DNA of 53,368 nt from Patescibacteria group bacterium. GTDB lineage: Bacteria > Patescibacteriota > Saccharimonadia > Saccharimonadales > 2-12-FULL-41-12. Below are positions 8,580 through 40,793 of the stretch, piece after piece. Both the position numbers and the translations under genes were made by a program. The DNA is taken from assembly GCA_038064875.1 (NCBI GenBank), contig JBBTSC010000001.1, forward strand, positions 1 through 53,368, written 5' to 3'. Numbering within the stretch: the stretch's first letter is position 1; each line of letters begins with the position of its first letter. The notes under the pieces are model-generated. The model ran no database searches and was not told the origin of the DNA. It worked only from the letters and a program-made list of their open reading frames with translations.

Positions 8580-8680
8580 CTATTACTGAACTATTATATA
8601 GGAGATGACTTAATAAACATAAAAACTATTGAAGTTTCATATTGGAGACTAAATAGTCTATAATAAGGCTTTATAATCTT

Positions 8681-10333
8681 ATGGATAGAGAAAATAATAA
8701 CAAGCGCAAAAAGCAAGTTTCTATAGATGGCTTCAGCACGCCAAGAAGGTCTCAAAGTAGTGGATCTCTAGGTCTTCGTAAGGGTGCATCATATCAGCCG
8801 AACAAGCCTTCGCATCGACTAGATAACTTCGAGAAAAAAGAAGGTTTGAGCCCGAATAGACAACAATCTATGAAAATTAACACTTCACCTTATTTTAAGA
8901 AAGAACATGATTTTGAAGCTCCAGAAAAGTACAAAAAACGTGGAAGATTGAGCAGGCTTAAGTTCTGGGATAGGTCAGGTAAGCCACCTCTTAGTAGAAA
9001 GCAAAAAATACTGCGTGGTTTTGGCATATTTGCTTTCATAGTCTTGCTGGTCGTTGGATTTTTGTTTGCAAAAGGATACATCAATCTCCATAAAGCTTTG
9101 AAAGGCGGTGGGGGCGCGGCAGCTCTTGATACTAATGTTGACCCATCCAAGTTGAAGGGTGAAGGAGATGGCCGTATCAATATATTGCTACTTGGTCGTG
9201 GTGGAGAAGGTCATGAAGGTCCTGATCTTACAGATACAATTATCTTAGCGAGTATTGACCCTATTCAGAAGCAAGCCGCTCTGGTGAGTATCCCAAGAGA
9301 CTTATATGTAAATGTCCCAAGCTACGGATCTATGAAGATAAATGCTGCTTTTGCAAATGGCAAGAGTTCTGCTCTATCTAAATATTCTAAAATTACGCCA
9401 GAAACAACCAAACAAGCTGAAGACGCTGGGCTAAAAGTGGTGTCTGATACCGTAGAGAGAACACTTGGTGTGCCTGTCCACTACCACGCTATGGTTGATT
9501 TTGAAGGATTTGAAAAAGCAGTTAATACAGTTGGCGGTGTTGATATAGATGTAAAAACACCTGTCAAAGAGCAGATGCGCATAAAAGGTAAGAATTATAT
9601 TCTAGATGTGCCAACTGGTCGTCAGCATTTTGACGGATTCAGAGCTTTAGCATATTCTCGTTCGCGATATACTTCTGCTAGAGGAGACTTTGATCGGTCG
9701 GAGAGACAAAGGCAGATGATAGTAGCCCTTAAAGAAAAGACAATAAGTCTGGGCACTCTCTCAAATCCAGCGAAGATATCAAGCTTGCTAGATGCTTTTG
9801 GAAAACATGTTACTACTGACTTTAGTGTTAATGATCTGAATAGGCTCTACACTATAACTAAGGATATCCAGGCTAACAACATTATATCTGTGGGTCTAGC
9901 CGATCCACCAAATAACTATGTAACCACAGGAAATATCGGCGGATTGTCGGTTGTTATACCTAGGGCTGGAGTAGGCAATTACAAGGAAATCCAGAGCTAT
10001 ATCAGGAATACTTTGAAAGACAGCTTTTTAAAGAATGAGAACGCCAAGATAGTAGTTCTGAACGGTACTAACGTGAACGGTCTGGCCTCTAAGAAATCTG
10101 AAGAACTGAAGAGTTATGGCTATAATGTGGTTAAAGTCGATAATGCTCCAACCAAGAACTACAATAATTCGGTAGTAATCGACCTGCGTGCTGGGCAGAT
10201 GAAATACACAAAGAGTTATCTAGAGAAGAGGTTCAAATCCTCAGCGGTAGGTAGTTTGCCGGATGCAAATATACAAGCCGGAGATGCAGACTTTGTTATA
10301 ATTATTGGTACCAACACAGCTGTTGAAGAATAA
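8681..10333 (+). CDS. LytR-CpsA-Psr (LCP) family glycopolymer transferase with a C-terminal LytR_C domain
   Basis: Basic cytoplasmic N-terminus, one TM, INILLLG, TDTIILAS, SIPRDLYV, RSR...DFDRSERQ, C-terminal IVVLNGT...GLA. Confidence 0.92.
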   Translation: MDRENNNKRKKQVSIDGFSTPRRSQSSGSLGLRKGASYQPNKPSHRLDNFEKKEGLSPNRQQSMKINTSPYFKKEHDFEAPEKYKKRGRLSRLKFWDRSGKPPLSRKQKILRGFGIFAFIVLLVVGFLFAKGYINLHKALKGGGGAAALDTNVDPSKLKGEGDGRINILLLGRGGEGHEGPDLTDTIILASIDPIQKQAALVSIPRDLYVNVPSYGSMKINAAFANGKSSALSKYSKITPETTKQAEDAGLKVVSDTVERTLGVPVHYHAMVDFEGFEKAVNTVGGVDIDVKTPVKEQMRIKGKNYILDVPTGRQHFDGFRALAYSRSRYTSARGDFDRSERQRQMIVALKEKTISLGTLSNPAKISSLLDAFGKHVTTDFSVNDLNRLYTITKDIQANNIISVGLADPPNNYVTTGNIGGLSVVIPRAGVGNYKEIQSYIRNTLKDSFLKNENAKIVVLNGTNVNGLASKKSEELKSYGYNVVKVDNAPTKNYNNSVVIDLRAGQMKYTKSYLEKRFKSSAVGSLPDANIQAGDADFVIIIGTNTAVEE

Positions 10334-19028: not shown

Positions 19029-19631
19029 ATGGCAGATATAACAATAGATGAAATTAAAAGACTTCGAGAGCTTACTGGTGTTGGCATAACCGACGCAAAA
19101 AAAGCCTTGGTAGAAGCAAAAGGAGACTTTGATAAAGCTCTTTCTGCGATGCGAAAAAAAGGACTAACAAAAGCAGAGAAACGTGGCGAGCGTGAAGCGC
19201 GAGCAGGTATAGTTAGCACATATAATCATGACAACCGTATTGGTGTTGTCGTTGAGGTCAATTGTGAAACAGATTTTGTTGCTCGCAATGAGTTGTTCAC
19301 TGACTTAGTTAAGGATGTATCAATGCATATTGCCGCCAGTTCACCTATATATGTCAGTATCGAAGATGTTCCGTCAGAAGATGTTGATAAGGTGAAGGCT
19401 GAATTTACAGAAAAAGCAAAAGCAGATGGAAAACCAGAGAACATGATTGAGAAAATTGTTGAAGGTATGGTGTCTAAACATTTTGCTGAAAAATGTCTTA
19501 TGGATCAGCCTTTTATTAAAAATCCTGACCAGAAAGTCAGTGACCTCGTAAAAGAAAATATTGCAAAACTTGGTGAGAATATTGTCATAAAGAGATTTTC
19601 TCGCATGGCAATTGGCGAAGTTAGTTCATAA
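19029..19631 (+). CDS. tsf: Elongation factor Ts (short form)
   Basis: IKRLRELTGVGITDAKKAL, EVNCETDFVARN. Confidence 0.97.
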   Translation: MADITIDEIKRLRELTGVGITDAKKALVEAKGDFDKALSAMRKKGLTKAEKRGEREARAGIVSTYNHDNRIGVVVEVNCETDFVARNELFTDLVKDVSMHIAASSPIYVSIEDVPSEDVDKVKAEFTEKAKADGKPENMIEKIVEGMVSKHFAEKCLMDQPFIKNPDQKVSDLVKENIAKLGENIVIKRFSRMAIGEVSS

Positions 19632-19788
19632 CCACACCAAATAAAATAACGTTTTTTATACACAACTGACTGTCTACAAAAATATTTTTGCTTCGCACCA
19701 TATTGCAAATATGATTTGTCACAAAAACAAATTTTGTAGTCTAGTCAGTCGTGATCTAAAATTACGCAATTTTGTTTGGTGTGGTTAT
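19628..19788. mobile_element. 161-bp imperfect palindrome with 20-bp terminal inverted repeats (MITE/REPIN-like)
   Basis: ATAACCACACCAAATAAAAT (19628-47) matches the reverse complement of 19769-88 at 19/20. Inner arms are 19661-81 and 19732-53. The core 19631-19785 is flanked by TA on both sides. Confidence 0.55.
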
Positions 19789-19802
19789 AGTACAATATAC
19801 AT

Positions 19803-20246
19803 ATGAGTACGGATTCTCAGATCCAAACAACAGTTATAGAACAGGCATCAGCAGAAATAGCTGAGCAATTAAATAATTTGTTGGTTCAGCTGAGCCCGGA
19901 GTCCAGGGTTGAGCAAGGTAGGTTAGAGCGAATAATTAGCTCGGATACAGCAGGGATTATAGTTGCAAAAGACGGCGATAAAATTGTCGGCATGGCGACA
20001 CTAAATGTTATCCAGAAATTAGCAGAATCAAAAGCTGAGCTGGAAGATTTTGTGGTAGACGCAGACCAAAGGGGCAAGGGAGTTGCTAGTATCCTATGGG
20101 ATAGTGTTATTGATTGGTGTCGTCAAAAAGAAGTTGAGAATCTAGAATTTACTTCTAGGCCAGCGCGCCAGGCAGCGCAACAATTTTATAGCAAAATGGG
20201 TGCAGAAATAAGAGATACAAATTTCTTCAGATACAAAATAAAGTAA
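19803..20246 (+). CDS. GNAT-family N-acetyltransferase
   Basis: LEDFVVDADQRGKGVA acetyl-CoA motif, TSRPARQAAQQFYSKMG. Confidence 0.9.
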   Translation: MSTDSQIQTTVIEQASAEIAEQLNNLLVQLSPESRVEQGRLERIISSDTAGIIVAKDGDKIVGMATLNVIQKLAESKAELEDFVVDADQRGKGVASILWDSVIDWCRQKEVENLEFTSRPARQAAQQFYSKMGAEIRDTNFFRYKIK

Positions 20247-39309: not shown

Positions 39310-40040
39310 TGGGGTGTCTCTCCATTCTTGTTAATAATGTAAAATTCAGATTTGGCCGCTGGGTTCATGGGTATCATTTTCACCGCAATACTTATCTTGT
39401 TTTCCGCGTCCAGTAGCTCCCAGAATTTCTGAGCAATATCCTCAGCGGAACCAGCTATTCCTACTACGAAAGGTCTAGAATCAAATGAAGGTATGGGGTC
39501 TCCATCCCCTTTATATGTATGGATACAGAGGCCTTTACCTTTTTTAAAGTTGGCAAGAGTTTTCTCATATATTTTTCTAACAGGCCTATCCTCGATAGGA
39601 TCTTTGCTAATGATTGAGAATTTTATTGATTGATCAGACCCAAAAAATCCAGAAATTCTCGGTGTAAAATTAGGTGCATCTGGTTCATAGGTTCTGGTAG
39701 CTAATGCATCTTCAAAGCTAGAACCTTTCTCTACAAAATCAGCAATAGTCGTGGTTTGATCTCCGTTACTGACAATGTGATTATTTGCTACTTCAGTCAT
39801 TGCATCATAAATAATAAGACTAGGATCTTCTACTTTTGAAGGATCATAGGCTTTAGTCTTCAGGTTTTCGTTTTCTAAGCTGAGGATTCTGTTGCGCGAA
39901 TTTTCACTGCGTCCCATTAGCCAGTACACTTGCACAAAATAAGTGCCAGTGCTATCAATTCCCATAATAATTCCTCTGCCAGGATAAGAGTTGTCTCTAA
40001 GGGCAGACTCGTTCAGTACGTGTTCTTCCACGGATTTCAA
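39306..40040 (-). CDS. purO: Archaeal-type IMP cyclohydrolase (Ntn-hydrolase fold)
   Basis: NSYPGRGIIMG, YWLMGRSENSRNR, IVSNGDQT, YEPDAPNFTPRISG. Probable start TTG 40040 after an AGAAAGGGA SD; overlaps the downstream gene by 4 bp. Confidence 0.85.
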   Translation of the reverse strand: MKSVEEHVLNESALRDNSYPGRGIIMGIDSTGTYFVQVYWLMGRSENSRNRILSLENENLKTKAYDPSKVEDPSLIIYDAMTEVANNHIVSNGDQTTTIADFVEKGSSFEDALATRTYEPDAPNFTPRISGFFGSDQSIKFSIISKDPIEDRPVRKIYEKTLANFKKGKGLCIHTYKGDGDPIPSFDSRPFVVGIAGSAEDIAQKFWELLDAENKISIAVKMIPMNPAAKSEFYIINKNGETPQ

Positions 40041-40106
40041 AAGTCCCTTTCTTACATATATTAGCAAAAACCGTACGTGTATTCAAAGTTTGCTATAATA
40101 GTCCTA

Positions 40107-40793
40107 ATGATATTGTTAGATCGGGTATCAAAAGTCTATAACAAGAATTCTACAGAGGCAGCAATTTCTCGGATTAGTCTACATGTCGAGCCGAAAGAGT
40201 TTGTGATAGTGGTGGGGCAGAGTGGTGCCGGTAAATCAACACTATTCAAATTGTTAACACGTGAAGAAAAACCAACAAGTGGCAAAATTATTGTCGGAGG
40301 AATAGATTATGAGAATCTCAAAGACAAGGACATCCCAAAGTTGCGTCGTAAAATAGGTGTTGTTTTTCAAGATTTCAAATTGCTTCCTAACAAAACAGTT
40401 TTCGAAAATGTAGCTTTTGCACTTGAAATAGTTGGCGTTAGCAACCGTGAGATCAAGCACACAGTACCAAAAGTATTATCTATAGTCGGACTCAAATCAA
40501 AAGAAGATAGATATCCACGTGAGTTGTCTGGTGGGGAACGACAGAGGGTGGCAATAGCCAGGGCAATTGTTCGTCAGCCAAAAATCCTAATAGCTGATGA
40601 GCCGACTGGTAACCTCGACCCAAAGCATGCATGGGATGTTATTCGGGTGTTAGAGCGGATCAACAAATTCGGAACAACCGTTATGCTGACCACTCACAAC
40701 CAAGAAATTGTGAATAAATTGAAAAGACGGGTGATTACCATTAAAGACGGGAAGATCGTTAGCGATAAAGCTAATGCATCATACGAGGTTTAG
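40107..40793 (+). CDS. ftsE: Cell division ATP-binding protein FtsE
   Basis: GQSGAGKST, FQDFKLL, LSGGERQR, ADEPTGNLD. Start re-placed at ATG 40107. Confidence 0.95.
   Translation: MILLDRVSKVYNKNSTEAAISRISLHVEPKEFVIVVGQSGAGKSTLFKLLTREEKPTSGKIIVGGIDYENLKDKDIPKLRRKIGVVFQDFKLLPNKTVFENVAFALEIVGVSNREIKHTVPKVLSIVGLKSKEDRYPRELSGGERQRVAIARAIVRQPKILIADEPTGNLDPKHAWDVIRVLERINKFGTTVMLTTHNQEIVNKLKRRVITIKDGKIVSDKANASYEV

Follow-up and report, generated by a model that had tools for sequence, protein, structure and literature searches.

We analysed a 53,368-nucleotide stretch of the genome of a Patescibacteria group bacterium (order Saccharimonadales; contig JBBTSC010000001.1), hereafter the window, and concentrated on a long palindrome located between tsf, which encodes elongation factor Ts, and the gene of a GNAT acetyltransferase. 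Segment 19631-19785 of the window is very probably a non-autonomous DNA transposon, of the type termed MITE (miniature inverted-repeat transposable element), and belongs to a family of rod-shaped hairpins of ~160 nt found in Saccharibacteria and other Patescibacteria (candidate phyla radiation, CPR). Elements of this kind are ordinary and already known. The original prediction, made from the sequence alone, had proposed a non-autonomous mobile palindrome at this site. This view is borne out by the existence of a multi-copy family with a patchy distribution, by bursts of near-identical copies in other genomes, and by filled and empty orthologous sites, which together constitute the signature of a transposable element. 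The window copy itself is probably old and immobile by now.

The segment 19628-19788 is a long imperfect palindrome, in which the 30-nt outer arms (19628-19657 and 19759-19788) show 83% complementarity to each other and further inverted pairs lie inside (CACAACTGACT with AGTCAGTCGTG, and CTACAAAA... with ...TTTTGTAG), so the terminal inverted repeats and the second inverted pair were correctly described at the outset. As a single strand, the segment folds into one rod-like hairpin with an energy of -57.4 kcal/mol for the + strand, compared with -27.2 +/- 3.6 kcal/mol for dinucleotide shuffles, none of which equalled the native sequence (z = -8.4); the same comparison for the - strand yielded z = -9.5. 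The element core has a size of 155 nt, and the sole open reading frame (ORF) in the ORF list that falls on it is a spurious antisense one overlapping the 3' end of tsf. The palindrome had also been suggested to act as a terminator and promoter module, but a consensus scan found neither a promoter nor a terminator within the element, nor any terminator-like run of T residues. The hexamer TACAAT, noted earlier as the -10 box of the GNAT gene, is indeed present at 19791-19796; it is located outside the element, 6 nt before the ATG codon of the GNAT gene (19803). Together with the bases that follow it, the TATA tetranucleotide at the right end of the element forms two -10-like hexamers (TATAGT at 19786-91 and TACAAT at 19791-96).

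The family became visible only in structure-aware scans of the genome from which the window comes (G000; 0.81 Mb in two contigs, 97% complete). BLAST of the palindrome against this genome revealed no second near-identical copy, and a search with an 11-mer of the terminal repeat detected no further copy. A scan for long local palindromes, in turn, identified ~10-11 rod-like hairpins of 159-166 nt, which differ in sequence and are alike in geometry, the apex loop of each falling at position 77-86. Their outer arms are unlike each other yet self-complementary, and a strand-specific inner core is common to all of them. When oriented, this core reads TG[GT]YYAAAA on the 5' side and TTTT[GA]A[TG]C on the 3' side, with the apex YTYCGCAC-C-(6-bp stem, 3-4-nt loop)-YTTTGTCRC. 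MAFFT alignment of full-length copies failed to bring out the outer stems, and modelling was restricted to the inner 93 nt. RNAalifold predicted 29 pairs in this region, 21 of them with compensatory changes, and the resulting alignment was used to build a covariance model, termed R1. In G000, R1 returned 10 matches at E <= 2.4e-4, with scores of up to 87 bits in the sense orientation versus 25 bits for the reverse strand; the window copy scored 75.6 bits on the + strand versus 23.3 bits on the - strand. It is the only copy in the window, as had been stated. In the whole genome, the element is single in the sense that it has no near-identical duplicate, but not as a family member, since the family has ~10 diverged members there. 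The left arm of the window copy fits a semi-conserved subfamily pattern, TA-[GA]CC-N-CCAAA(A)YAAAAT, derived from the stacked outer arms of ~59 copies.

Beyond G000, R1 detected copies in 16 of 30 genomes and in seven of the eight genera of the taxonomic family, with 0-16 copies per genome, and in five out of 301 genomes sampled from the phylum. One of these five, the distant CPR2 genome G153, contains at least 13 strong R1 matches and ~27 near-identical copies, recognised as pairs of the terminal repeat CTGGACTTACGCAAA, some of which are truncated or have internal deletions. The same-genus sister species, G001, harbours a young subfamily of five near-identical copies with perfect ends (CTCGACTTACGCAAA), and young relatives possess perfect 15-16-bp terminal repeats (CTSGACTTACGCAAA). 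Across genera, the element lengths cluster at 160-170 nt. In an alignment of 59 distinct copies, 82.8% of the cells were paired, versus 58% in shuffles and 33-45% with slid partners. All 29 pairs change on both sides, with a covariation score of 0.62 versus 0.10-0.16. On the sense strand, G-U pairs outnumber A-C mismatches by 136 to 81. Two copies stand out by their location. A full copy in the Saccharibacteria contig CAYQBK010000036.1 (L182, 2746-2900) is embedded in a 580-aa ORF that continues across it in frame; the terminal repeat of this copy is translated as KLDLRK, a peptide that recurs later in the same protein. Another copy (L130, 6937-7099) is found in a 53-kb contig classed as viral (IMGVR_UViG_3300025582_000056), with a 421-aa ORF on one side and, on the other, a diversity-generating retroelement's genes for Avd and reverse transcriptase, a placement that we take as a coincidence. 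A search for the corresponding empty-site pattern in viral sequences gave no match, and an exact look-up of the Avd from this contig returned filled sites only.

Comparison of orthologous sites in G000 and G001 showed that members of the family have moved. The sequence most similar to the window copy, at 74% identity over the full length, is a G001 copy between a holB-like gene and a TPR gene, where the stop codon likewise lies within the tip of the element; the orthologous holB-TPR junction in G000 is an 18-nt spacer with no element. Two other G001 copies, L050 and L057, correspond to empty sites in G000, at positions 40031-40107 and 8583-8743 of the window, respectively. The first of these empty sites is located in a well-conserved non-coding stretch (..AAGAAAGGGAC..CCGTGGAAGAAC..), which may be a leader or a small RNA. 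The element is also missing from the tsf-GNAT spacer of G001 (L016, 2320-2491, minus strand). This spacer holds a different, unrelated palindrome of 105 nt (GCCAAAACCAAACG...CATTTGGTTTTGTC) with a GC-rich apex hairpin, for which we found neither an R1 match nor, by BLAST, another copy.

The target duplication was analysed in young copies, in which the element was defined as CTSGAC...GTCSAG and the 4-mers on either side were compared. Among 29 such copies, the flanking 4-mers were identical in 13, differed by one mismatch in 14 and by two mismatches in two, while shuffled pairing of the left and right flanks gave only 20% identical pairs. A scan of all registers and lengths pointed to the same 4-mer register, and in a second set, comprising 29 CPR-type copies, 58.6% of the duplications were perfect versus 16% after shuffling. 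The target consensus is T-N-N-A, mostly T-W-W-A. The first four copies from G001 (with flanks such as TATA/TATA, TTAA/TTAA and TTGA/TCAA) had suggested that the flanks are inverted, i.e. palindromic, but this model was ruled out by direct repeats that are not palindromic: TTTA/TTTA, encountered six times, TAGA/TAGA, TCTA/TCTA and TAAA/TAAA. We conclude with moderate confidence that the family duplicates 4 bp of its target, or 2 bp within a T-NN-A site. A direct duplication of 4 or 5 bp implies staggered cuts, and our best guess is that the elements are mobilised in trans by a DDE-type transposase.

For the window copy, the register of the flanks was inferred from the 28-29 young copies, in which the 4-mers directly abut the terminal repeat. 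Its flanks, CATA-ACC...GGT-TATA, agree in three of the four positions. The TA dinucleotides previously noted on each side of the core are therefore present, but are better read as parts of these two 4-mers. Removal of the element and one 4-mer in silico yields ...AGT TCA TAG TAC AAT..., where tsf ends with TAG at the same codon; the presumed pre-insertion junction is ...GTTAGTTCATA joined to GTACAAT. Insertion would thus have occurred at a T-N-N-A site overlapping the stop codon of tsf, with 4 bp of the target probably duplicated, as in the young copies. The element starts with a purine, so that TA of the flank and the first A of the element would have restored a stop codon, TAA, in place. The observation that the left end contains the tsf stop codon was correct; tsf remained intact, and the insertion was tolerated although this genome has hardly any room between genes. 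The element is most likely co-transcribed, as a long hairpin, within the rpsB-tsf-GNAT-frr messenger. In five out of the 10 copies in G000 the tip of the element overlaps the stop codon of the neighbouring gene, which makes the TAG/TAA-tipped subfamily well suited to landing on gene ends.

The window copy is not linked to a gene replacement at the tsf locus. The original prediction had associated the palindrome with the replacement of pyrH by the GNAT gene, but the gene order in the taxonomic family is rpsB-tsf-frr without pyrH in 29 genomes, with a tsf-frr gap of mostly 15-60 nt. The GNAT gene occurs between tsf and frr only in the genus of the window (g1), and is absent from this junction in other genera. 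G001 has the GNAT gene at this place and lacks the element, which indicates that the GNAT insert predates the element. As a separate observation, among the loci L064-L090 at least eight genomes carry different inserts of 0.3-1 kb at the tsf-frr junction, the GNAT gene of the window genus among these inserts; this site resembles a hot spot where small genes are inserted, and pyrH is present there in none of the genomes.

Several observations weigh against the MITE interpretation. The 4-bp repeat shows mismatches in roughly half of the young copies, noisier than expected at their ~5% divergence, and the flanks of one copy, L060 (TTGA/TCAA), look inverted rather than direct. Length bookkeeping at two empty sites, compared between G000 and G001, favours a net gain of 2 bp or 6 bp over one of 4 bp; the spacers of these genomes are too diverged to settle the size. 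For the window copy, no empty-site allele was found among contigs encoding the identical GNAT protein (Hainich groundwater assemblies, well H51), which are all filled. Compensatory changes preserve the whole length of the hairpin, which simple recognition of terminal repeats does not need. Finally, the mobilising enzyme was not found. The DDE_3 domain (PF13358) is absent from G000, G001, G008 and G153, with control genomes positive, and none of the 24 genomes tested has DDE_Tnp_1 (PF01609, IS4/IS5 type); G153 contains no long element with the same terminal repeats, and solo terminal repeats adjoin housekeeping genes (DprA, TsaD, AsnB and similar). The single DDE_3 match was on a small contig in G023, whose assembly is 6% contaminated. 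An autonomous element with the same ends was found neither in G153, G001 and G000 nor in the 905 kb of sequence surrounding 120 copies of other phyla, in a search that was not exhaustive. Three candidates for the parent element or the mover were rejected: a 777-bp segment of G153 between terminal repeats, which encodes two small membrane-like ORFs and no transposase; a 1.77-kb segment of L182 between MITE arms, with two orphan ORFs that have no family and no homologues; and a Hymenobacter insertion sequence (HTH_Tnp_4/DDE_Tnp_4) beside MITE copies, whose ends are unrelated. BLAST of a cyanobacterial copy against plasmids returned fragments only and no transposase.

The strong covariation raises the question of whether the hairpins are primarily structured RNAs kept by selection on pairing, either cis-acting mRNA hairpins (an RNase III site, a stabiliser or a terminator) or a family of small RNA genes. 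The double changes at all 29 pairs, the defined strand of the core, and the excess of G-U over A-C on the sense strand are in line with this explanation, as is the position of the element within a co-directional operon, where it is probably transcribed. However, the copies that abut gene ends occur in mixed orientation relative to the adjacent gene (three sense, five antisense), they are present or absent at orthologous sites, they have spread in recent bursts with target duplications, and their number varies from 0 to 27 among related genomes. Rfam covariance models matched no family in the palindrome, with top scores of 13-19 bits, far under the gathering scores, and a terminator-like T-run is lacking. 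Moreover, transposon ends co-vary in any case, because one protein binds both of them. The compensatory changes, originally named as a sign of a non-coding RNA, are real, but the mixed orientation and the lack of an Rfam match disfavour that reading. We consider a structured-RNA family very unlikely, and the window copy is probably neither an RNA gene nor a regulatory RNA.

Even less probable is a MITE derived from IS630/Tc1-mariner elements with a TA target duplication, as had first been proposed. The window copy and many others do have TA at both tips (TA-RSC...GSY-TA), and the L057 site compared with its empty counterpart in G000 fits a net gain of 2 bp. Nevertheless, if the ends of the element are fixed, flanks such as TTTA and TTAA in the 28-29 young copies leave no TA directly adjoining it on either side alike, the termini are not of the CAGT type, and a DDE_3 transposase is missing from the copy-rich genomes; T-N-N-A 4-mers, not TA, flank the young copies, so that this origin is highly improbable. 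The absence of PF13358 and PF01609 would, on the other hand, be expected of a mobile element that depends on its hairpin, with a folded single strand recognised by structure as for REP/RAYT or the ends of IS200/IS605, and no classical DDE enzyme. Such a mode would account for the hairpin, its fixed length of 160-166 nt, and an apex motif that is conserved while the arm sequences drift. In G000, where GC skew locates the origin of contig C1 at about 650 kb and its terminus at about 170 kb, the sense strand of the family is the leading strand in nine out of 11 copies, a bias that is not significant (p ~0.07). HUH/Y1 transposition, however, leaves no target duplication, whereas direct duplications of 4 or 5 bp were observed, and we regard this mode as extremely improbable. 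The conservation of the hairpin over its whole length and the weak leading-strand bias may still leave room for a structure-dependent step in the movement of what we interpret as a MITE. Two further ideas were discarded. An integron attC site does not agree with the tips TCATAAC/GTTATAG, which by eye are unlike RYYYAAC...GTTRRRY, or with copies that are scattered rather than arrayed, and a retron was ruled out on sequence and context.

The terminal repeat of the young CPR subfamily, GGACTTACGCAAA, also bounds MITEs of 130-160 bp in cyanobacteria, proteobacteria, Bacteroidota and Chloroflexota. Scanning species-representative genomes for the pattern GACTTACGCAAA-N(105-135)-TTTGCGTAAGTC gave at least 120 stretches, and the hosts among the matches listed include many Nostocales, Legionellales, Burkholderiales (Undibacterium, Comamonadaceae), Moraxella, Hymenobacter, Chloroflexota, Desantisbacteria, CPR2 and several Saccharibacteria. 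Calothrix parasitica and Cylindrospermum NIES-4074 have ~100 pairs of the terminal repeat, and a Moraxella genome of 2.6 Mb has ~60. The copies outside CPR have ends of the form YAG-GACTTACGCAAA and long, self-complementary arms with lineage-specific sequences, and they are flanked by a 5-bp direct duplication that is perfect in 70.6% of cases versus 0.4% for shuffled pairing. The R1 core was found in none of the non-CPR copies among the loci listed with titles, where all its matches are CPR loci; this suggests that the terminal repeat is common to several phyla and that the interior would be specific to Patescibacteria. The match between the ends of the young subfamily and MITEs of many phyla makes a widespread group of related transposases likely. 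A search for the terminal-repeat sequence in the texts of papers retrieved only unrelated primers. One could go further and postulate a cross-phylum superfamily of hairpin MITEs with the end YWG-GACTTACGCAAA (in Cyanobacteria, Pseudomonadota, Bacteroidota, Chloroflexota, Desantisbacteria, CPR2 and Saccharibacteria), recently amplified in Patescibacteria genomes in which no transposase can be recognised, and moved there by an undescribed enzyme, possibly borne by a phage or an episome, as the copy on the viral contig might hint, or through recognition of the rod hairpin and its apex instead of the termini, with the TAG/TAA-tipped subfamily, that of the window copy, adapted to landing on stop codons in ultra-compact genomes and restoring them; as a whole, we regard this extended scenario as unlikely.

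Some of the non-CPR copies are associated with other repeats. Six loci (L156, L179, L187, L208, L210 and L223) contain palindromes of the type GTCATTGCGAGC or GTCATTCCCGCG...CGGGAATGAC in their arms, which resemble common small repeats of cyanobacteria and betaproteobacteria and suggest nested or chimeric repeats. In Hymenobacter fastidiosus, the contigs of L267, L272 and L275 end in one and the same repeat (..GAAGCTGTTTGAGTTAG..), inserted in or beside MITE copies, and a separate DDE_Tnp_4/HTH_Tnp_4 insertion sequence is located near L271 and L274; the MITE copies there seem to attract other insertions.

Small palindromic repeats are known from many bacteria. The Correia elements of Neisseria (CREE/NEMIS) are non-coding, start with long terminal inverted repeats (TATAG...), form one long hairpin, and are inserted at AT-rich sites beside genes, with which they are often co-transcribed. 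Their copies are near-identical within a genome, with TA duplicated, and we know of no transposase for them. Their size is ~100-160 bp (PMC3184786, Table 1). Like Correia elements, the CPR family consists of small non-coding hairpins next to genes, with long terminal inverted repeats that start with TATAG..., AT-rich insertion sites and probably frequent co-transcription, for which no transposase was found; compared by description only, it differs in its 4-bp (T-N-N-A) duplication, in the high divergence of the copies in G000, and in the conserved strand-specific apex. Nezha, a MITE of Nostocales, was reportedly described by Zhou et al. in 2008. Nezha elements of Anabaena and Nostoc have 130-170 bp, terminal and direct repeats, a stable hairpin, AT-rich targets, and ends said to be common with ISNpu3 (PMC3184786), and the Nezha template of MUSTv2 is quoted with a direct repeat of 10 bp (PMC6042816). 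The 129-159-bp MITEs bounded by GGACTTACGCAAA in many Nostocales genomes, and also in Burkholderiales, match Nezha circumstantially, in host range and size. In contrast to the 10-bp repeat of that template, the cyanobacterial copies measured here have 5 bp. Among the loci listed, no non-CPR copy shows the inner core that characterises the CPR family.

The palindromic elements of Rickettsia (RPE) and Wolbachia, of ~100-150 bp, occur in reduced genomes as diverged subfamilies and are sometimes translated in frame, with RPEs typically located inside genes; to our knowledge, they too have no known transposase. The CPR copies resemble RPEs in being palindromic, in residing in a very small genome as diverged subfamilies, and in the one in-frame copy of L182, whereas most of them lie at gene ends or in spacers and have target duplications as well as terminal repeats. 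Two further kinds of MITE, ERIC/IRU of enterobacteria and RUP of pneumococci, consist of small imperfect palindromes that occupy the spacers of transcription units (PMC3184786, Table 1). The same description applies to the CPR family. RUP depends on an IS630-type element that duplicates TA, and the CPR family differs from it by lacking both that duplication and, in G000, G001, G008 and G153, an IS630 transposase. Descriptions of Patescibacteria usually portray their genomes as streamlined, with little mobile DNA, and a literature search for MITEs in Saccharibacteria and Patescibacteria found no paper describing them. A hairpin that spreads in genomes of 0.8-1.1 Mb, settling on the ends of genes, providing stop codons and interrupting operons with 160 nt of folded sequence, matters for annotation, namely for the calling of gene ends, spurious ORFs and candidate non-coding RNAs, and could affect the expression of compact operons in these organisms. 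The 13-nt terminal repeat common with cyanobacterial, proteobacterial and Bacteroidota MITEs offers a handle on the transposase family and on tracing the exchange of DNA.

Features of the window at and around the element (positions are those of the window)
Feature	Position	Strand	Basis or remark
tsf (elongation factor Ts)	19029..19631	+	ORF list; Pfam EF_TS 5.3e-36
tsf stop codon TAA	19629-19631	+	last two bases of the left flanking 4-mer plus first base of the element
CATA, presumed 4-bp target duplication, left copy	19627..19630		one mismatch to the right copy
Element proper, 155 nt, rod-like imperfect palindrome, probable MITE of the CPR hairpin family	19631..19785	family sense = +	inverted repeats, folds, R1
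Left outer arm, terminal inverted repeat (ACCACACCAAATAAAATAACG...)	19631..19657	+	
Conserved strand-specific inner core	19661..19752	+	RNAalifold alignment, R1, 60-copy alignment with covariation
Core 5' motif CTGTCTACAAAA			
Core apex TTCGCACC	19692-99		
Core stem-loop ATATTG-CAA-ATATGA	19700-14		
Core segment TTTGTCAC, following the stem-loop	19715-22		
Core 3' motif TTTTGTAGTC			
Right outer arm, terminal inverted repeat (...CGCAATTTTGTTTGGTGTGGT)	19759..19785	+	
TATA, presumed 4-bp target duplication, right copy	19786..19789		
GNAT acetyltransferase gene	19803..20246	+	Pfam Acetyltransf_1 3.1e-19

Downstream of the GNAT gene, the gene order continues with frr, an M50 protease gene and proS. 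Other long hairpins were noticed in contig C1 of G000, namely a class of ~125 nt (245470-245596, 738023-738145, 323951-324072 and 697519-697643) and two larger ones (517842-518049, 208 nt, and 372176-372362, 187 nt); they are not matched by R1 and may be other repeat families or terminator-like structures.

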